Source: a virus
Virus record (IMG/VR): IMGVR_UViG_3300023492_000064
Span: 1 to 5,867 of that record
DNA: 5,867 bases
Strand: one strand, 5' to 3'
The notes below the pieces were generated by a model. It was not told where the DNA came from. It saw only the letters and a program-made list of their open reading frames with translations, and made no database searches. Positions within the stretch are counted from its first letter, which is position 1. Each line of letters starts with the position of its first letter. Both the position numbers and the translations under genes were made by a program. Positions 226-5,867 of the stretch are shown one piece after another.

Positions 226-669
226 ATGAGAAATTTTGCTTATAAAAATCCCGATTTTTTAGAGGATGATTTTACTCCTGAGCTTGTTGAAGAAAATCCG
301 TGTTATCAGGCATCTGTATATGATCAGGTTATGTATGATGAAACTCCTGATGGTGATCTGATTCAGTGCGATATGACCCAAATCTTGTTGAATCAGGAAA
401 AATATCGTCGTCTACTTGGTGATATGAATGTTCAGAACATTCTTGCTCAGATGCATCCTACGCGGTCTACTACTATGGATAGCATGACTGATGAAGAGCG
501 ATTCGCTTGTGTTATTTCTCGTCATTGTCAGACAATGTCGGAACGTCAAGCTGTGTTACAGCAGTTGGCTAGTGAAAAATCTGAGCTAACGGCTTATGCC
601 GAAGCGATGTTGGCAGAGCAACAGTCAGCGCCCGATCCGTCGTCCGCCCCTGACGCTTCTGTTCAATGA
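226..669 (+). CDS. Hypothetical 147-aa protein between VP1 and VP2. Its position and size fit an internal scaffolding (VP3-like) role, but I cannot establish the function from sequence.
   Basis: Track ORF 208-669 begins at TTG. The first ATG is at 226 (MRNFAYKNPDFLEDDF...), 12 nt after the VP1 stop. It has T-ending codon usage like the core genes. The N-terminal half is acidic, there is a motif MTDEERFACVISRHCQTMSERQ, and the tail is Pro/Ser-rich (SAPDPSSAPDASVQ). Its stop TGA (667-669) overlaps the VP2 start ATG (666-668) as ATGA, which suggests translational coupling. Confidence 0.75.
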   Translation: MRNFAYKNPDFLEDDFTPELVEENPCYQASVYDQVMYDETPDGDLIQCDMTQILLNQEKYRRLLGDMNVQNILAQMHPTRSTTMDSMTDEERFACVISRHCQTMSERQAVLQQLASEKSELTAYAEAMLAEQQSAPDPSSAPDASVQ

Positions 670-1787
670 GATTCTATGATATTGGAGAGAACCCCTTAAT
701 GGGGCTCTCTGAAAAGTGTATTGCTCCGCTTGTTCTTGGTGGTATTATTGCTGCTGGTGCTTCTCTTGCTGGTAATGCGATCGGATCCGCTTCTCAGAAT
801 AAGACCAATCAGACTAGTATTGATATTAATCGTGAGAATAACGCATTTAATGCTCATCAGGCTCAGATCCAGCGTGATTGGCAAGAAAAAATGTGGGGAA
901 TGAATAATTCTTATAATTCCCCCAATGCTATGATTTCTCGTGGTCTAAACCCATTTGTTCAAGGTTCTGCTGCTATGGCCGGCTCGAAGTCCCCTGCTTC
1001 AGGCGGTGCTGCTGCTTCTTCTGCTGGTATGCCTAGTTTACAAGCGTTTCGCCCTGATTTTTCCGATGTTGGTTCTGCTCTTGCTTCTATGGCTCAGGCT
1101 CGTGCTGCTATGCTTAATGCTGAGAGTAATGCTGCTCTTACCCCGTATAAGATGCAACAAATTCTCGGCGATACCAATTATCGTAATATTGGTGTTGGCC
1201 AGTCAGGTTATTGGAATGCGTCTACCGGCCGTCGTTCTGCTTTGTTAGACCAATCTAAGGAGTATCAGGAACTTAAGAATATGGAATTTGCTGGTCGTCT
1301 TACTTCTGCTCAAGAAGCGCAGATTCTCCTTGATTCTGAAGCCCAACAGGTGCTTAATAAGTATCTTGATGAACAACAACAGGCTGATCTTTTTATCAAA
1401 GGTCAGACCTTGTCTAATTTGTATGCTCAAGGTTCTCTTACAGAGGCTCAGTATAAAACTGAGATGGCTAAAGCTGTAAAAACTGCTGCTGAAACCAATG
1501 GCATTCGTATTAATAATAAGATTGCTTCCCAAACTGCTGATTCTCTGATTTATGCTAATATTCAGTCTAATCGTGCTCGAGGTTTATCTTCATTATGGGA
1601 ATCTAAGAATACCAATGTGCTTAAAAATATTGAGTATTCTAAGGATAAGGCTTTACGTGATTATTATAAGTGGAGTTCTAAGCATAAACAGAAAGACGTA
1701 GATTCTTATGAGTTACGTAATGCTGTGGATTATGGCTCACGTATATTCCAAGGTATTGGTAGTTCAATCGGTACTAAGATTAGATAG
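666..1787 (+). CDS. VP2: VP2 minor capsid / DNA pilot protein (phiX174 H-like), 373 aa
   Basis: It has an N-terminal hydrophobic Gly/Ala-rich segment, CIAPLVLGGIIAAGASLAGNAIGSA. This is followed by NRENNAFNAHQAQIQRDWQEKMWGMNNSYNSPNAMISRGLNPF (about 828-957), which matches the conserved block I recall from microvirus VP2 proteins (N..FNA..AQ..RDWQE.MW...N.YN.P.....R....GLNP). Next come an Ala/Ser/Gly-rich linker and a long Gln/Glu/Lys-rich helical region. An alternative start is ATG 699 (MGLSEK...). Confidence 0.87.
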   Translation: MRFYDIGENPLMGLSEKCIAPLVLGGIIAAGASLAGNAIGSASQNKTNQTSIDINRENNAFNAHQAQIQRDWQEKMWGMNNSYNSPNAMISRGLNPFVQGSAAMAGSKSPASGGAAASSAGMPSLQAFRPDFSDVGSALASMAQARAAMLNAESNAALTPYKMQQILGDTNYRNIGVGQSGYWNASTGRRSALLDQSKEYQELKNMEFAGRLTSAQEAQILLDSEAQQVLNKYLDEQQQADLFIKGQTLSNLYAQGSLTEAQYKTEMAKAVKTAAETNGIRINNKIASQTADSLIYANIQSNRARGLSSLWESKNTNVLKNIEYSKDKALRDYYKWSSKHKQKDVDSYELRNAVDYGSRIFQGIGSSIGTKIR

Positions 1788-1794
1788 CATACTT

Positions 1795-1987
1795 TAGGAC
1801 TAGAAGCCCATCGCGGCGTTTGAGCGATATACACCCGCCGCCCGCGTAGGGCCTGATCGAAATATGGAGCGGAGCGACTTCCTTAGAGAAGCGTTCCGCT
1901 TCGGTATTTTAGCACGGAGTGCGCAAAGGCAGATTCTATCTGATCTGCCGTGCCTATACACCCCTGTATACATCCACTTCTGTCCTA
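1795..1987 (+). other. G+C-rich structured domain in the large intergenic region: a closing helix plus four hairpins. Candidate complementary-strand origin or structured nucleic-acid element.
   Basis: TAGGACtAGAAG (1795-1806) pairs with CTTCTGTCCTA (1977-1987), giving 11 bp with one bulged T (1801). Internal hairpins are as follows. A, 1806-1852: GCCC/GGGC plus CGCGG/CCGCG, with alternative register GCGGCG 1813-1818 / CGCCGC 1836-1841. B, 1866-1902. C, 1928-1949: GGCAGAT/ATCTGCC, extendable by GCAC 1912-1915 / GTGC 1950-1953. D, 1955-1970: TATACA-CCCC-TGTATA. Hand count gives 98 G+C in the 180 nt of 1801-1980 (38/60 in 1801-1860), against 19/60 in coding 1501-1560. No track ORF falls in 1788-2038 on either strand. 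Confidence 0.5.
1866..1910 (+). terminator. Strong imperfect hairpin followed by a T-rich tract. Possible terminator of the VP4-VP1-VP2 transcription unit; it is also hairpin B of the structured domain.
   Basis: AGCGGAGCG (1868-1876), bulged A1877 and CTTC (1878-1881) pair with GAAG (1888-1891) and CGTTCCGCT (1892-1900). That is 13 pairs including one G:T, with a 6-nt loop CTTAGA. It extends to 1866/1902 and is followed by GGTATTTTA. It lies about 80 nt downstream of the VP2 stop. The T run is short and not directly adjacent to the stem, so the terminator call is weak. Confidence 0.3.
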
Positions 1988-2023
1988 GATCTGTTAGTAA
2001 TGGACCTAGGATTTGTTAATTAA

Positions 2024-2049
2024 GCGAAGCCCCTAGTTGTGTGCGAAGC
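2024..2049 (+). repeat. Two exact copies of GCGAAGC (2024-2030 and 2043-2049), the stable DNA mini-hairpin heptamer, spaced 19 nt start to start
   Basis: Read directly: taaGCGAAGCccctagttgtgtGCGAAGCaaaa. Each heptamer can form a GC/GC stem with a GAA loop. Confidence 0.6.
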
Positions 2050-2151
2050 AAAACTCGAGTTATCATCTCGATTTCTCCCTTCCCTTGTCCATAAACGCAC
2101 AACTCACACTATATTTCCAATGGTCCTTTTTCCACAATATTTAAAAAACTA

Positions 2152-2182
2152 TTTGGAAATACAAAAAAAAATCATACCTTTG
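2152..2182 (+). promoter_or_regulatory. Candidate Bacteroides-type promoter: -33 TTTG (2152-2155), 19-nt spacer, -7 TACCTTTG (2175-2182)
   Basis: It matches the Bacteroides fragilis primary-sigma consensus TTTG / TAnnTTTG as I recall it (spacing 19-21). A manual scan found only three TAnnTTTG matches in the window (2175, 4061, 4516). This is the only intergenic one and the only one with a correctly spaced -33 TTTG. It lies about 50 nt upstream of the first ATG (2233) of the ORF65 - membrane peptide - VP4 - VP1 gene string, ahead of an A/T-rich leader with no Shine-Dalgarno sequence. Confidence 0.45.
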
Positions 2183-2209
2183 TCCGCTGTAGAAGTTACA
2201 ACTATTATT

Positions 2210-2227
2210 AACATTTTAAACATTTTA
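2210..2227 (+). repeat. Perfect tandem duplication of the 9-mer AACATTTTA, immediately upstream of ATG 2233
   Basis: AACATTTTA occupies 2210-2218 and again 2219-2227, read directly. Function is unknown; it lies in the predicted 5' leader. Confidence 0.6.
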
Positions 2228-2232
2228 CAATT

Positions 2233-2430
2233 ATGCAAAAATTTATTATTTCCGTTAAGGAGAAAACCACTGGTCGTGATGTTATTCCGCCTTATGTTGT
2301 TAATTCTCTCGAGGCTCTTGGACATTATTCTGAACGAGTTTCTCGACTGGGTTTTATTGTTATTGTGGACTCGATTAGAGAGGAGAACGATTTTGTCGAA
2401 TTTAAAGCTCAAGCTGATGAAAAGAAGTAA
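2233..2430 (+). CDS. Hypothetical 65-aa protein
   Basis: It starts at an ATG and is the first ORF downstream of the candidate promoter. Codon usage shows the same T-ending bias as the core genes (GTT, GGT, CGT, GAT, CCT, TAT, AAT, TCT, GCT, CTT), unlike the overlapping 153-aa frame. I recognise no motif. The net charge is near neutral, so it is not an obvious J/VP5-like basic DNA-packaging protein. Confidence 0.55.
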   Translation: MQKFIISVKEKTTGRDVIPPYVVNSLEALGHYSERVSRLGFIVIVDSIREENDFVEFKAQADEKK

Positions 2431-2552: not shown

Positions 2553-4232
2553 ATGAAATTTTCTCCTGATTTGTTTAAGGCAGTTGACCATTGTCAACAT
2601 CGTTCATTTATTACGAATAAGTATACTGGTGCACGCATTGCTGTAGATTGTGGTCAATGTGATTATTGTATCCATAAGAAAGCTAAAAAGGCGTCCATGC
2701 GTGTGAAGACCGCTGGAAGTGCTTTCAAGTATTCTTTTTTTTCTACTCTTACGTATGATAATGAGCATATTCCTCTTATGTATTGTAAGGTTCTTCATAG
2801 TGAATACGAGGATGTCGTAGGCATTTCAGGAGATATCCATTTTGGCGATGAATACCATTCTTATATCCCTGTTTCTGAATATCAATGTGATGATAGCTCC
2901 GCATTGCGTCATGTATTTTTCGAGCAGGTACAGGGTACTGTTCCGTATGACCGTGAAATTAAGGAATATATTCCTGTTAAGGATAATTGGTTCCTTAGTA
3001 TGGATACTATTCGTAGTTTTATCCATAAAACGCAGGCCCTTGAGAAAACGGATTATCCCGTTTCTGAACAATATGGTCGTAATAATCTTATTCCCTTCCT
3101 GAACTATGTCGATGTTCAGAATTACATAAAACGTTTACGTAAATATTTATTTCAAAAATTAGGATCTTATGAATCGTTACATTTCTACGCTGTGGGCGAG
3201 TATGGTCCAGTCCATTTCCGTCCGCATTTCCATTTGTTATTATTCACTGACTCGGACGAAGTCGCAGCGGTTTTACGAGAGTGTCATGATAAGAGTTGGA
3301 AGTTCGGTCGTTCAGATTTCCAACGTGCCGCTGGTGGAGCTGCTTCGTACGTTGCGAGTTACGTTAACAGCCTTAGTGCTGCTCCCTTATTATATCGGTC
3401 ATGCCGCGCGTTTAAGCCCAGATCGCGAGCGTCTGTCGGATTTTTTGAAAAAGGCTGCGATTTCGTGGAAGACGAAGAACCTTATGCGCAAATTGAGCGA
3501 AAAATCGATTCTGTCGTTAACGGAAGAAGCTACAACTTCGGCGGTGTCTGTGTTCGGTCAACTCCACCCATGTCGTATATCCGTACCTTACTCCCCCGAT
3601 TCTCGTCTGCTCGCAATGATGATAGTACTGCGATTATTAGAATTCTTCGAGCTGTACACTCGACGCCAACAAGAATTGCAAGGTTTGGATTCATTGACTA
3701 TAAGCAAGACTCAGTCTTAAATCTTGTTCATTCTTATTATCAATATCTTAAATGTAATCCTATTCTTACTGATGATGATAAGATTATATTACATACTGCT
3801 CGGTGCCTTACTAGGTTCTGCAACAGTTCTAGTGATGTCGATATTAAATCTTATATTAATAAGTTATATCGGCTGTTCTTATATGTCTATAGGTTCTTCC
3901 GTAATTGGCATTTGCCTCCCTTTGGTTCTGATATTAGCGCTTACTCCGGCCGTATTATGTTTATCCTTAAAACTGGAATAGAATATGAGACGAAAAAAAA
4001 TTATGAAAGTCTACGAAATGCATTCAACATACGCTCCCTTAACTCGGAGATATCAGATTGTATGTTTGCGTTGCCTCAGAACGGGCAAGAGCGTGATGTC
4101 TTGTCGAATGTTTCATTTGAAACGGTTCAACTTCTTGAGCAACTCCGGTACCGTAGTGCGACATTCTGTCGTGATATGATTAAGCACAAGAAGCTTAATG
4201 ATGCTAATAATATTTTTAACCGCATGGTTTAG
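2553..4232 (+). CDS. VP4: VP4 replication initiation protein (HUH rolling-circle endonuclease, phiX174 A-like), 559 aa from ATG 2553. The track ORF starts at TTG 2529.
   Basis: It has an N-terminal Cys/His cluster (DHCQH...VDCGQCDYCIHKK). HUH motif I is FSTLTYDNEHIP (2739-2774) and motif II is HFRPHFHLLLF (3213-3245). Motif III, YVASYVNS (3348-3371), has two tyrosines spaced Y-x-x-x-Y as in phiX174 protein A. The length above 500 aa, with a long insertion between motifs I and II and a long C-terminal extension, fits what I recall for Alpavirinae-like VP4 rather than the roughly 300-aa gokushovirus VP4. Confidence 0.93.
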   Translation: MKFSPDLFKAVDHCQHRSFITNKYTGARIAVDCGQCDYCIHKKAKKASMRVKTAGSAFKYSFFSTLTYDNEHIPLMYCKVLHSEYEDVVGISGDIHFGDEYHSYIPVSEYQCDDSSALRHVFFEQVQGTVPYDREIKEYIPVKDNWFLSMDTIRSFIHKTQALEKTDYPVSEQYGRNNLIPFLNYVDVQNYIKRLRKYLFQKLGSYESLHFYAVGEYGPVHFRPHFHLLLFTDSDEVAAVLRECHDKSWKFGRSDFQRAAGGAASYVASYVNSLSAAPLLYRSCRAFKPRSRASVGFFEKGCDFVEDEEPYAQIERKIDSVVNGRSYNFGGVCVRSTPPMSYIRTLLPRFSSARNDDSTAIIRILRAVHSTPTRIARFGFIDYKQDSVLNLVHSYYQYLKCNPILTDDDKIILHTARCLTRFCNSSSDVDIKSYINKLYRLFLYVYRFFRNWHLPPFGSDISAYSGRIMFILKTGIEYETKKNYESLRNAFNIRSLNSEISDCMFALPQNGQERDVLSNVSFETVQLLEQLRYRSATFCRDMIKHKKLNDANNIFNRMV

Positions 4233-4277: not shown

Positions 4278-5867
4278 ATGAGTGATTTTAATCCCCTTGA
4301 TCGAGCGAGAATTTCTATGCATCGATCTTCATTCGATTTAAGTTCGAAGAAACTATTCACTGCTAAGATTGGTGAAATTTTGCCATGTTATTGGCAGATT
4401 GCTATTCCGGAAAATAAATATCGTATTTCCTCGGATTGGTTTACCCGTACTGTTCCTGTCAATACCGCTGCTTATACCCGTATTAAGGAGTATTACGATT
4501 TTTATGCTGTTCCATTACGTTTGATTTCTCGTGCTCTTCCACAAGCGTTTACTCAGATGACTGATTATGTGACTAGCGCGGCTAGTAATGATACGAATAC
4601 TACTACATTAAGTTCTGTTCCTTATACCACTATGTCTCAGTTTAGTGCTTTTTTGCTTGCTGCGAACGCTGGAGATCAACCTAATACTCGTGATGATGCT
4701 GGTCTTCCTTTTGTTTATGGTACTTGTAAGTTATTGGATTTACTTGGTTATGGATCTATGATTGATAAGTCTAATGCAGGTAAGGCTGCAATTACTAAGA
4801 AGTATTTAGGTCTTGACAATCTTGGTGACGGAAATAATCCACTGGTTTATTCTGTAAGTCAGACGGTAAATATGCTTCCTCTTCTTGCTTATCAGAAGAT
4901 TTATTTTGATTTCTTCAGTAATTCTCAATGGGAGAAACATTTAGCTTATGCTTACAATGTGGATTACTGGCAAGGCACTAGTTCTGTTCCATTATCCGTT
5001 AATATGCTTAAGATGCGCTATGCGAATTATCCTAAGGATTATTTTATGGGTATTCTTCCCTCTTCTCAATATGGTTCTGTAGCTGTTTTGCCTGCGGTTG
5101 ATAATGCTCTTCTTTCTTCTCAAGTTGGTTTATACCCCTCGCTTACTTCTGCCGTTGCTGGCTCGTCTGTTCAGAATCCGTCTGGTGGCAGTACCGTTGT
5201 TGCTTCGTCTTCTAATTCTTCCACTGGCCCTCGTTTTGCTCGTCTTAATTCTGACCTTTCCGCATTGTCAATTCGTGCAACGGAATATCTCCAGCGCTGG
5301 AAAGAGGTAGTTCAGTTTAGTAGTAAGGATTATTCTGATCAGATGGCCGCCCAATTTGGTATTAAAGCCCCTGAGTATATGGGTAATCATGCTCATTATA
5401 TTGGTGGTTGGTCTAATGTGATTAACATCAATGAGGTTGTGAACACTAATCTTGACGCTGATACTTCTCAGGCTTCTATTGCTGGTAAGGGAATTTCTAG
5501 TCAGTCAGGACATACACTTACTTATGATTGCGGTGCCGAGCATCAAGTGATTATGTGTGTATATCATGCTATTCCATTATTGGATTGGAATTTGACAGGT
5601 CAGAACCCTCAGTTAACTGTTACTGCTGTTTCTGATTTTCCGCAACCCGCATTTGATCAACTTGGTATGCAATCTGTTCCGGCATTGAATTTGCAAAATA
5701 ATCCCGGTCGTTCTGTTTCTGGATCCATTGGTTATAATCTTCGCTATTGGCAATGGAAATCTAGTATTGATACGGTTCATGCTGCATTTCGTACTGGTGC
5801 TGCTTATCAGTCTTGGGCTGCGCCCCTAGATGGTTGGCAAGTCCTGACATCTTCTGGTGCTTGGTCT
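4278..5867 (+). CDS. VP1: Major capsid protein VP1 (phiX174 F-like), N-terminal 530 codons. The ORF is open to the window end and continues at position 56 through the 55-nt terminal redundancy, giving 582 aa in total.
   Basis: Hand translation from ATG 4278 found no stop through 5867 (1590 nt = 530 codons). This ORF is absent from the supplied track, presumably because it has no stop inside the window. The protein starts MSDFNPLDRARISMHRSSFDLSSKKLFTAKIGEILPCYWQIAIPENKYRISSDWFTRTVPVNTAAYTRIKEYYDFYAVPLRLISR. It also contains LPLLAYQKIYFDFFSNSQWEKH, MRYANYPKDYFMGILPSSQYG, IRATEYLQRWKE, VYHAIPLLDW, FPQPAFDQLGMQ and YNLRYWQWKSSID. From memory, these blocks are characteristic of Microviridae major capsid proteins, especially the Bacteroidota-associated (Alpavirinae-like) lineage. 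Codon usage is T-ending, as in the other genes. Confidence 0.95.
   Translation, partial: MSDFNPLDRARISMHRSSFDLSSKKLFTAKIGEILPCYWQIAIPENKYRISSDWFTRTVPVNTAAYTRIKEYYDFYAVPLRLISRALPQAFTQMTDYVTSAASNDTNTTTLSSVPYTTMSQFSAFLLAANAGDQPNTRDDAGLPFVYGTCKLLDLLGYGSMIDKSNAGKAAITKKYLGLDNLGDGNNPLVYSVSQTVNMLPLLAYQKIYFDFFSNSQWEKHLAYAYNVDYWQGTSSVPLSVNMLKMRYANYPKDYFMGILPSSQYGSVAVLPAVDNALLSSQVGLYPSLTSAVAGSSVQNPSGGSTVVASSSNSSTGPRFARLNSDLSALSIRATEYLQRWKEVVQFSSKDYSDQMAAQFGIKAPEYMGNHAHYIGGWSNVININEVVNTNLDADTSQASIAGKGISSQSGHTLTYDCGAEHQVIMCVYHAIPLLDWNLTGQNPQLTVTAVSDFPQPAFDQLGMQSVPALNLQNNPGRSVSGSIGYNLRYWQWKSSIDTVHAAFRTGAAYQSWAAPLDGWQVLTSSGAWS
5813..5867. repeat. Right copy of the 55-nt exact terminal direct repeat
   Basis: Identical to 1-55. 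It lies inside the VP1 reading frame, so it is redundancy from linearising a circle, not a biological repeat. Confidence 0.97.

Follow-up and report, generated by a model that had tools for sequence, protein, structure and literature searches.

In every microvirus the packaged single-stranded DNA is turned into duplex by host enzymes and, to our knowledge, the start site of this conversion is known only for E. coli phages (phiX174, G4 and relatives). In phiX174, complementary-strand synthesis starts at the primosome assembly site (PriA n′ site), a hairpin in the F-G intergenic region (PMC9865509). This is a single hairpin of ~55 nt that is recognized by PriA. The G4-type origins are primase-dependent. 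These origins, which comprise those of G4, St-1 and alpha3 and the RSF1010 ssiA and ssiB sites, are ~140 nt in length and have three hairpins. Mini-hairpins are known at the G4 primer site (GCGAAAGC), in St-1 and alpha3 (GCGTTAGC) and at RSF1010 ssiA (CCGAAGG); they are SSB-resistant there and mark the priming site (PMC13037366). Conversion of single-stranded to double-stranded DNA by host enzymes takes place at ssi or sso sites, and the sso sequences and the M13/f1 minus origin are 150-300 nt long, extensively folded, specific to one strand and dependent on host enzymes alone (PMC5714925). The reekeekee- and roodoodoo-microviruses, which are metagenomic clades, display one or two simple conserved non-coding hairpins of 13-64 nt with compensatory substitutions, and for such hairpins in other microvirus clades a role in minus-strand initiation has been put forward tentatively (PMC9865509). 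No described origin or non-coding RNA was found in the literature for Alpavirinae-like or Bacteroides microviruses.

The window analysed here is a stretch of 5,867 nt from the microvirus record IMGVR_UViG_3300023492_000064. All genes are on the + strand, and a non-coding stretch of this packaged strand lies between the VP2 stop codon (TAG, 1785-1787) and the next open reading frame, which starts at 2233. A sequence-only reading of the window had singled out a G+C-rich island at 1795-1987, described as four hairpins (A to D) closed by an 11-bp inverted repeat, and had proposed that it is a complementary-strand origin or else a structured RNA or a MITE-like insertion. Its base counts are exact (98 G+C of 180 in 1801-1980 and 38 of 60 in 1801-1860, compared with 19 of 60 in 1501-1560); the island is 54-56% G+C and the genome 40.0%. 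As it had stated, 1788-2232 has no credible gene, since the open reading frames there are only 51 and 57 amino acids long. Across 1800-1962 the length differs by a non-multiple of three in 89 of 131 relatives, which also counts against a gene. Several GenBank records annotate hypothetical proteins across the element. The repeated sequence TATACACC does have its only two genomic copies at 1828 and 1955, where 0.19 are expected.

The island is real and conserved, and constitutes the upstream, lineage-specific half of a folded non-coding element of roughly 320 nt. The element is bipartite and spans 1790-2112, with a 5′ domain at 1795-1975 and a 3′ core at 2013-2112 (Table 1). Thus the boundaries first drawn were too narrow, as both conservation and covarying helices extend to about 2112; the island is an accessory 5′ half, and the deeply conserved part is the 3′ core. 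The element is maintained 3′ of the VP2 stop codon in more than 130 microvirus genomes, which include 34 GenBank microviruses and more than 100 IMG/VR microvirus contigs, and it always follows VP2. A blastn search (word size 11) with 1780-2240 as query against 50,697 phage records returned only this microvirus clade. Exact pattern matches to both domains were absent from 185,579 bacterial and archaeal species, each represented by one GTDB genome. The element was found only in a group of gut (Bacteroides-type) microviruses. The Rfam 15 covariance models gave no match at E<=10 on either strand of 1780-2240 (461 nt), and no tRNA or tmRNA was found. Four or five genomes have the core but not the 5′ domain (L127, L135, L141 and L147, and L122 in part), so the island is dispensable, which rules it out as the only essential origin. 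Among relatives, the region is a hotspot for indels.

Table 1. Positions of the structural and sequence features in and around the non-coding element (window coordinates).
Feature	Positions	Strand	Description
Linker after VP2 stop	1788-1801	+	CTTYAGGAC (1792-1799), near-invariant columns in alignment A1 (79 sequences)
PK-A, interleaved helix pair	1803-1828	+	S1 1803-1808/1815-1820; S2 (hairpin a) 1810-1814/1824-1828
TATACACC, copy 1	1828-1835	+	Unpaired, between PK-A and PK-B
PK-B, interleaved helix pair	1836-1852	+	S1 1836-1838/1844-1846; S2 1840-1843/1849-1852
Mini-hairpin b and hairpin c	1866-1902	+	b, GCGGAGC 1869-1875; c, 1888-1892/1898-1902
Alternative to b and c	1866-1902	+	One long helix, 1866-1876/1892-1902 (hairpin B of the sequence-only reading)
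GGTAnTTTAGC and hairpin d	1903-1922	+	GGTAnTTTAGC invariant; d, 1912-1915/1919-1922, GGA loop closed by C-G
Hairpin e (hairpin C of the sequence-only reading)	1923-1954	+	1928-1934/1943-1949; junction pairs 1923-1924/1952-1953
TATACACC, copy 2, and optional hairpin D	1955-1970	+	CCTATAC invariant; D, TATACA/TGTATA
Optional insert	1976-2012	+	3′ arm of the proposed closing repeat and degenerate hairpin CCTAGATC...GACCTAGG
3′ core, outer parts	2013-2112	+	Mini-hairpin f, GCGAAGC 2024-2030; P1, 2035-2042/2097-2104
3′ core, inner helices		+	Mini-hairpin g, GCGAAGC 2043-2049; P2, 2052-2059/2067-2074
3′ core, unpaired		+	Pyrimidine tract and CTYGTCYATAAAC, 2075-2096; AACTCACAC, 2101-2109
Bacteroides-type promoter for downstream genes, read from sequence	2152-2182	+	TTTG 2152-2155, 19 nt, TACCTTTG 2175-2182

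Covariation supports nine helices in the 5′ domain. Among aligned relatives 94.8% of the helix cells are paired and, over 12 pairs, 49 cells are changed on both sides; 0-1 of 500 shuffles are as good, and slid controls reach 26-50%. The linker has no covariation-supported partner. PK-A, a pseudoknot or else a choice between two hairpins, shows compensatory changes at 1813/1825 (GC 110, AT 14, CG 5) and 1804/1819 (AT 94, GC 17), and 1805/1818 turns to A-T in AGAGCC/GGCTCT variants. PK-B shows such changes at 1836/1846 (CG 121, GC 5, TA 5), 1841/1851 (CG 127, GC 3) and 1843/1849 (CG 127, TA 4). These two helix pairs take the place of hairpin A of the sequence-only reading (1812-1818/1838-1846), which is contradicted by mismatches at 1813/1845 (14 A-C, 5 C-C) and 1812/1846 (5 C-C, 5 C-A). 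Between them, the first TATACACC copy is retained by almost all aligned relatives, but most of the IMG/VR loci had been collected with a 5′ search pattern that demanded the motif; in the distant relatives L152 and L155 it is also present, 3′ of a hairpin.

Hairpin c is supported at 1889/1901 (GC 79, AT 46) and the long alternative helix at 1872/1896 (GC 118, AT 4), and short variants have GCGAAGC, GCGTAGC or GCGCAGC in place of hairpin c. Hence three sites have two overlapping helices, each backed by compensatory changes: PK-A, PK-B, and b plus c versus the long helix. Hairpin d varies at 1914/1920 (AT 100, GC 29) and has GGA, AGA, GTAG, GAAG or GACG loops; hairpin e varies at 1932/1945 (GC 58, GT 41, AT 27) and 1929/1948 (GC 127, AT 2). 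Of the hairpins in the earlier description, C (1928-1949) is accordingly kept, with compensatory changes, as is the core of B (1888-1902, or 1866-1902 in the alternative form). Hairpin D displays no covariation and its 3′ arm is missing in several relatives (L006, L025, L034, L086, L087, L090). As for the 11-bp repeat, the minimum free energy structure of the single sequence does close with TAGGACtAGAAG/CTTCTGTCCTA, but the repeat is not conserved. Its 3′ arm (1977-1987) lies in an optional insert at about 1976-2012 that is found in about 18 of 79 aligned relatives, most having none, and its 5′ arm (1802-1808) pairs instead with 1815-1821. A multi-way junction closed by this repeat is therefore not the conserved architecture. 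Other pairings were discarded. Two came from RNAalifold on A1: GCCC 1806-1809/GGGC 1849-1852 is disrupted in precisely the variants whose changes are compensated within PK-B, and the long-range 1866-1875/2024-2033 has invariant columns only and conflicts with an ACGAAGT variant in L016. A helix closing the whole element, GGAC 1796-1799/GTCC 2087-2090 or AGAAG with the pyrimidine tract, shows no covariation in A1, and in the AAATA/TATTT pairing (1859-1864/1905-1910) positions 1863/1906 are A-A in 109 of 131 sequences.

The 3′ core has four covariation-supported helices, with 97.7% of cells paired and, over 10 pairs, 70 cells changed on both sides; none of 500 shuffles is as good. Mini-hairpin g changes at 2043/2049 (GC 75, CG 41, AT 10) and the lower P1 pairs are invariant (AGTT/AACT). 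The covariance model of the core, R1, matches relatives whose Rep is only 25-29% identical, as well as the cultured Bacteroides fragilis phage phiHBP1; it found the core in every microvirus contig tested and in no other contig. A CRISPR spacer targets the 3′ core.

The element contains three to five mini-hairpins of the C-GNA-G type (GCGAAGC and similar). On the + strand GCGNAGC occurs three times in the genome, and all three copies (GCGGAGC and two GCGAAGC) are within the element. Mini-hairpin g varies only among GCGAAGC, CCGAAGG, ACGAAGT, GCGAAAGC, GCGAACGC, CCGTAAGG and similar sequences, with covariation of its 2-bp stem, and relatives carry CCGAAGG, GCGAAAGC and CGTTAG forms. Most of these loops, or sequences closely analogous to them, appear in the literature among the stable DNA mini-hairpins, which bind SSB poorly; d(GCGAAGC) melts at 76.5 C and r(GCGAAAGC) at 39 C (PMC13037366). 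These mini-hairpins combine very high stability as DNA with weakness as RNA, and priming sites that contain them are known in G4 and RSF1010 (ssiA); they thus point to a structure of viral single-stranded DNA rather than of RNA.

The island also folds far better than shuffled sequences. As DNA, 1795-1987 has a folding energy of -39.8 kcal/mol (z -4.36; 0 of 200 shuffles as good), and as RNA it has -80 kcal/mol with a better z-score of -5.68 relative to shuffles. The reverse complement folds with z -3.58, so that energy alone cannot assign the strand. Among helix cells across relatives G-T outnumbers A-C (278 vs 81), and this favours the + sense as the strand that folds. With standard DNA parameters the 3′ core is not thermodynamically exceptional (z -1.36), nor is the upstream region in L152 (z -0.3) or in phiHBP1 (z -0.5).

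The position relative to transcription signals provides another indication. In 114 of 124 genomes the core is followed by the pattern TTTG-N17-23-T[AT]nnTTTG, which we take to be the Bacteroides promoter consensus. A canonical terminator, where recognizable, is never 3′ of the core. It is located 5′ of the 5′ domain in, for example, L012, L015, L037, L076, L079, L107, L137 and L148, between the two domains in four genomes, and directly 5′ of the core in genomes that have no 5′ domain. The insert at 1976-2012 in L041, L043, L077 and L083 is a perfect hairpin followed by a T-run and is terminator-like. In the distant relatives and phiHBP1, VP2 (or whichever gene is last upstream) is immediately followed by the terminator, with the promoter 3′ of the core. 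Because the element sits between terminators and a Bacteroides-type promoter, single-stranded DNA rather than RNA is again favoured. No strict upstream terminator is present in 102 of 124 genomes of this clade, and in these transcription thus probably runs into the 5′ domain, which would be a 3′ UTR. In a terminator scan hairpin c with the adjoining GGTATTTTAG passes as terminator-like, but the canonical terminators of relatives lie 5′ of the element or within it instead.

The element resembles the G4-type origins in that it is an intergenic cluster of stable hairpins on the viral strand of a microvirus; mini-hairpin motifs of the kind known from those origins are present and enriched in it. 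It differs in being ~320 nt long and bipartite, with interleaved or alternative helix pairs, and in that the host of the present phages is Bacteroides; blastn similarity was not detectable among the 50,697 phage records. The lack of sequence similarity to the G4, phiX174 or M13 origins counts against an origin function. The ssoA, ssoT, ssoU and ssoW sequences and the M13/f1 minus origin are likewise folded, non-coding and one-strand-specific. The CS-6 motif of ssoA is TAGCGT; unlike ssoA, the element has neither TAGCGT nor TAGCGA in 1788-2116. A promoter-like hairpin mimic was not found in the element: hairpins judged by eye for CAAAnnTA or TAnnTTTG have one-mismatch matches only. The M13 intergenic region gave only a low-complexity pyrimidine-tract match (p about 0.015), and a resemblance to the M13 gpII site did not emerge as the best alignment. 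The phiX174 PriA n′ site is also a viral-strand intergenic hairpin in a microvirus, but it is a single hairpin and similarity to the element was not detected. Compared with the reekeekee- and roodoodoo-microvirus hairpins, the element is multi-domain, has mini-hairpins and interleaved helices, and has a core found across very divergent lineages.

From these properties we infer that the element folds in the packaged + strand and acts as DNA in a replication-origin region, where its most likely role, with about an even chance of being the right one, is to start the complementary strand on incoming single-stranded DNA. The origin proposed in the sequence-only reading is thus the best supported of its suggestions, given the GNA mini-hairpins, the position, the wobble bias and the absence of an Rfam match, although its architecture and extent had to be corrected. 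An RNA element, i.e. a structured 3′ end of the long VP1-VP2 transcript, is considered unlikely. It could be a terminator, a 3′ exonuclease block or an unclassified cis- or trans-acting RNA, with the covarying helices as RNA helices. The RNA folding energy, the frequent G-U pairs, the pseudoknot-like interleaved helices and hairpin c followed by GGUAUUUUAG, which scores as an intrinsic terminator, agree with this, and in most clade genomes the stretch from VP2 to the island holds no other terminator. However, at least eight clade members and the distant relatives, including phiHBP1, have a canonical terminator 5′ of the whole structured region, the 3′ core is always between terminator and promoter, and no promoter of its own is visible upstream. 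Neither the lack of Rfam matches nor the conserved hairpins of 2 bp and a GNA triloop, whose measured RNA counterparts are much weaker (PMC13037366), fit an RNA, and the earlier suggestion of a non-coding RNA or 3′ UTR is weakened accordingly, the RNA z-score notwithstanding. A mobile origin of the island is scarcely credible. A MITE-like insertion bounded by the inverted repeat, or a captured host fragment, would be in keeping with the elevated G+C content, the indels and the genomes that have no 5′ domain; yet those genomes do not lack exactly 1795-1987, every copy is at one syntenic microvirus site, and neither the inverted repeat, which is not conserved and has its 3′ arm in a separate optional insert, nor the absence of exact pattern matches to either domain from the 185,579 representative bacterial and archaeal genomes is compatible with it. 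This suggestion is rejected.

A viral-strand (Rep/VP4) origin is improbable, but is compatible with a minus-strand origin. The rolling-circle initiator would bind and nick at the 3′ core or at the TATACACC motifs, a site that the hairpins would present in supercoiled RF and, for termination, in displaced single-stranded DNA; the island would be an enhancer or a separate minus origin. The core is indeed kept at very low Rep identity, with invariant unpaired motifs and lower P1 pairs, and its unpaired YCTTGTY after the pyrimidine tract resembles CTTG/ATA, which we take to be the sequence around the nick in phiX174 and pC194. The core and 5′ region would also parallel the phiX-like phages, whose plus origin is conserved and whose minus origins are variable. 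When the right half of the phiX174 origin is taken together with the CCCC-GAA-GGGG hairpin next to it, the best match in the genome is at 1828-1851 (20 of 24 identical), but 24 of 200 shuffled queries equal it and the match is not significant. The full phiX174 30-mer, CAACTTGATATTAATAACACTATAGACCAC, matches best in VP2, with an exact 11-mer at 819-829; the homologous site varies in relatives and the match is ascribed to a coincidence of codon usage. G-T wobbles and DNA mini-hairpins suggest a structure specific to single strands rather than a duplex site, and we know of no nick site for this Rep group. Some other role of the packaged strand, such as a packaging or ejection signal, contact with a protein of the capsid or a pilot protein, or shielding from the nucleases or defence systems of the host, has little likelihood. 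The strand specificity, the repeated unpaired TATACACC, which could bind a protein, and the spacer against the core are in accord with it, but nothing in the analysis points specifically to such a role. For Microviridae, which couple packaging to rolling-circle synthesis, we know of no sequence-specific packaging signal.

Under the preferred reading as a complementary-strand origin, the ejected single-stranded DNA would become coated with host SSB, and the stable C-GNA-G mini-hairpins and covarying helices would remain folded and free of SSB. The folded element might then offer the unpaired TATACACC (twice), GGTAnTTTAGC, CCCCTAGTT, CTYGTCYATAAAC and AACTCACAC to a host priming enzyme, which would lay the minus-strand primer. 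Candidates for this enzyme are primase, which acts directly at the origin of G4 and at RSF1010 ssiA, and RNA polymerase, which is used in M13 and plasmid sso. The 3′ core may represent the ancient, indispensable part and the G+C-rich island a module added in one clade, which probably strengthens or duplicates the signal of the core.

The overlapping helices raise a further question. Helix pairs that interleave or alternate are typical for RNA, and we know of none described in origins of single-stranded DNA, which counts against the preferred reading. Perhaps the 5′ domain is a selected bistable or pseudoknotted single-stranded DNA fold that switches, e.g. on SSB binding, to license priming, or perhaps it belongs to a new class of structured phage RNA; both are doubtful. 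Such a switch has been proposed for G4 hairpin I, which would turn into a mini-hairpin. A switching DNA fold, if true, would be the equivalent in DNA of a riboswitch-like element, and the 5′ domain would be the first pseudoknotted single-stranded DNA origin that we know of.

The gut is rich in Bacteroides-associated microviruses. The first isolate of such a virus, phiHBP1, was reported only in 2025 (PMC13064476). The present analysis provides a defined candidate origin region with covariation support, a core common to very divergent lineages and to this cultured phage, and concrete motifs for mutation, i.e. the GNA mini-hairpins, TATACACC and CTYGTCYATAAAC; the origin question thereby becomes directly testable. 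It would also help in the annotation of such genomes and in the design of synthetic microvirus genomes that can replicate or be rescued. Should the interleaved helices exist in DNA, they would make the element an unusual natural case of complex single-stranded DNA folding.

The window spans one complete microvirus genome, a circle of 5,812 nt whose bases 1-55 recur at 5813-5867, with all genes on the + strand and a sole long non-coding region, 1788-2232. This region holds a genuine, conserved element with good support for its structure; a sequence-only reading had noticed it as a foldable island, but delimited it wrongly and drew it wrongly in part. The G+C counts behind that reading are exact (98/180 in 1801-1980, 38/60 in 1801-1860, 19/60 in 1501-1560; genome 40.0%). 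For 1795-1987 the folding energy is -39.8 kcal/mol as DNA (z -4.36) and -80 kcal/mol as RNA (z -5.68), with no shuffle as good. The repeated motif TATACACC is found at just two genome sites, 1828 and 1955, and the stretch is non-coding, its length across 1800-1962 being off by a non-multiple of three in 89 of 131 relatives. The G+C-rich island is therefore real and non-random.

Thirty-four microvirus genomes from dog, human and lemur samples share the region with 69-85% identity, always directly after VP2 (blastn, phage records). A conserved 27-nt pattern is found in 102 IMG/VR contigs, mostly of ~6 kb, the size expected of microviruses. A 3' pattern is found in at least 119 stretches, which comprise these contigs, additional ones from microviruses and a few of larger size, the last rejected as chance or CRISPR-spacer matches. 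The comparison set consists of 131 distinct island copies and 128 copies of the adjoining stretch.

The island had been thought to be closed by an 11-bp inverted repeat. The 3' arm of this repeat (1977-1987) sits in an insert (~1976-2012) that is found in only ~18 of 79 aligned relatives, and thus the closing stem is a sublineage peculiarity. In four genomes the insert forms a perfect hairpin with a T-run after it. Hairpin A, in its MFE version, is contradicted by uncompensated changes (1813/1845 is A-C in 14 cases and C-C in 5) and gives way to two interleaved helix pairs (see table); for example, 1836/1846 appears as CG, GC and TA, and 1841/1851 as CG and GC. When the 5' domain as a whole is written in pseudoknot notation, 94.8% of its cells pair, and both sides have changed in 12 pairs (49 cells). 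Shuffles equal these values in 0-1 of 500 cases, and slid controls are 26-50% paired. The first interleaved pair would be sterically impossible as a complete classical pseudoknot, with a 2-nt loop across a 7-bp stem, which suggests that some interleaved pairs are alternatives and not simultaneous. The long helix of hairpin B (1866-1876/1892-1902) is backed by 1872/1896 (GC 118, AT 4), but so is a rival fold, consisting of mini-hairpin 1869-1875 and a hairpin at 1888-1902, by 1889/1901 (AT 46, GC 79). Covariation is present in hairpin C (1928-1949) and also in a hairpin at 1912-1922; hairpin D (1955-1970) is without covariation and optional.

Features of the window genome and of the bipartite element
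Feature	Position	Strand or domain	Remarks
Pilot protein VP2	666-1787	+	
First interleaved helix pair	1803-1808/1815-1820 with 1810-1814/1824-1828	5' domain	replaces hairpin A; compensatory changes
Second interleaved helix pair	1836-1838/1844-1846 with 1840-1843/1849-1852	5' domain	replaces hairpin A; compensatory changes
Mini-hairpin GCGAAGC	2024-2030	3' core	
Helix P1	2035-2042/2097-2104	3' core	
Mini-hairpin GCGAAGC	2043-2049	3' core	position g
Hairpin P2	2052-2059/2067-2074	3' core	
Unpaired pyrimidine tract		3' core	downstream of P2; CTYGTCYATAAAC at its end, then AACTCACAC
A-rich spacer, then Bacteroides-type promoter	2113-2232	+	TTTG 2152-2155, TACCTTTG 2175-2182; ~50 nt upstream of ATG 2233
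Small ORF	2233-2430	+	
Rep with REP_ORF2-G2P domain	2553-4232	+	
Capsid protein, Phage_F family	4278 onwards	+	

Conservation runs on past the boundary first set, into a second domain, the 3' core (2013-2112). Here 97.7% of cells are paired, 10 pairs have changed on both sides and 0 of 500 shuffles are as good. Position 2043 covaries with 2076 as well (GT 72, CG 32, AT 10, CT 11; 2043-2047 with 2072-2076 in the window), and CCGAA of the CCGAAGG variants is able to pair with a downstream TTCGG. This may represent an alternative pairing that competes with the mini-hairpin at g and P2, or a lineage effect. R1, a covariance model built on the 3' domain, detects that domain at an unchanged genomic position even where Rep identity is as low as 25-29%, with scores of 48.9, 43.5 and 31.7 bits in three such relatives and ~18 bits in two more. 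It also matches Bacteroides phage phiHBP1 (40.2 bits), reported as the first microvirus of Bacteroidota to be brought into culture (PMC13064476). R1 matches all microvirus contigs tested and none of the others, the M13 and phiX174 origin stretches being among the latter. The island is missing from four or five genomes that do carry the core, and distant relatives display a different sequence upstream of the core, having kept only "hairpin + TATACACC ... CTATACCC" motifs and several mini-hairpins. Thus the element is bipartite, and the island is its accessory half, specific to one clade.

A CRISPR array with the repeat GTCACACCCTACGTGGGTGTGTGGATTGAAAC (type I-C-like ending) is carried by two contigs, IMGVR_UViG_3300029016_000046 and its twin (L136 ~12,000-12,400 and L143 ~5,650-6,050). 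One of its spacers, TTGTCTATAAACGTTGAACTCACACAGCGCCCCA, has a 26 nt match to the 3' core of genomes of the type of relative L012, and therefore the element is targeted by some host.

A predicted Bacteroides-type promoter, TTTG-N19-TAnnTTTG, lies downstream of the core, at 2152-2182 in the window and with the same layout in 114 of 124 genomes; in phiHBP1, TATGTTTG is immediately upstream of the Rep ATG. An M15-like peptidase ORF (~102 aa) is found upstream of Rep in MG945488, Dulem viruses and phiHBP1 and is absent from the window genome, where a 27-aa membrane-like ORF (2417-2500) is all that remains in the corresponding stretch, 2417-2552. Dulem viruses 254 and 255 (L007 368-612, L010 368-612) carry, between VP2 and the element, an additional ORF of 50 aa that has a Bacteroides-type promoter to itself; relatives L006, L008 and L009 retain its 3' remnant only. 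The VP2-element junction is a hotspot of module gain and loss. GenBank 'hypothetical protein' CDSs lie over the 5' domain in PP511392 (L006 558-884) and over the 3' core in PV598014 and PP511526 (L156 2326-2736, - strand; L152 3581-3784). These are probably spurious, as indels among relatives break the frame.

The element is neither MITE-like nor host-derived: across 185,579 species of bacteria and archaea, with one genome per species, exact pattern searches with both domains gave no match. Nor is it a known RNA family, as Rfam gave no match even at E<=10, and a tRNA/tmRNA search found none. Folding energy does not decide between DNA and RNA, because the reverse complement folds well too (z -3.58). 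The wobbles in helices, 278 G-T versus 81 A-C cells, favour folding of the + sense strand, a sense that packaged DNA and mRNA share. C-GNA-G mini-hairpins are many in the element, and GCGNAGC on the + strand is found just three times in the genome, all within it. The 2-bp stem at position g covaries (GC 75, CG 41, AT 10), and its loop forms are confined to GCGAAGC, CCGAAGG, ACGAAGT, GCGAAAGC, GCGAACGC, CCGTAAGG and similar; in short variants, GCGAAGC, GCGTAGC or GCGCAGC stands in place of another entire hairpin, hairpin c. A family of extraordinarily stable DNA mini-hairpins that bind SSB poorly includes most of these forms or close analogues of them, d(GCGAAGC) melting at 76.5 C versus 39 C for r(GCGAAAGC); such mini-hairpins are also found at the G4 primer site, in St-1 and alpha3, and in RSF1010 ssiA (PMC13037366). 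These DNA-type mini-hairpins favour structure at the DNA level, as does the position between terminators and promoter. Recognizable canonical terminators precede the island, stand between the two domains or immediately precede the core, and none comes after the core; in distant relatives and phiHBP1 the terminator is directly 3' of VP2 or the last upstream gene. With the promoter downstream, the core therefore lies in a non-transcribed spacer. The island can fall on either side of the terminator, and an RNA role for it is possible: a strict upstream terminator is missing in 102 of 124 genomes of the clade, and in the window hairpin c (1888-1892/1898-1902) with GGTATTTTAG is itself terminator-like.

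The start of complementary-strand synthesis is the only known microvirus step that needs a packaged-strand structure recognized by host enzymes (PMC5714925, PMC9865509). Because position, strand specificity and mini-hairpins fit, this is the most likely predicted function of the element, held with about even confidence. The features of the core, namely its deep conservation, invariant unpaired motifs and invariant lower P1 pairs, would suit a Rep (viral-strand) origin equally. The two origins adjoin in the M13 intergenic region, and by analogy they may lie side by side here. In searches for phiX174-like and M13-like origin sequences, no match was both significant and conserved. VP2 contains, at 819-829, the exact phiX174 origin core TTGATATTAAT, including the TG/AT nick context; it is kept at the homologous site in a minority of relatives only and is probably a codon-usage coincidence. 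When the right half of the phiX174 viral-strand origin, together with its adjacent CCCC-GAA-GGGG hairpin, was compared with the genome, the best match (20/24 identical) was TATACACC plus a GCCC/GGGC hairpin at 1828-1851; it is not significant, as shuffled queries score equally in 24 of 200 cases. Homology to mapped origins is not detectable. The element is most likely a structured ssDNA origin region as in rolling-circle replicons, in a new form, and since the cultured phage phiHBP1 carries the core, its function is now testable.
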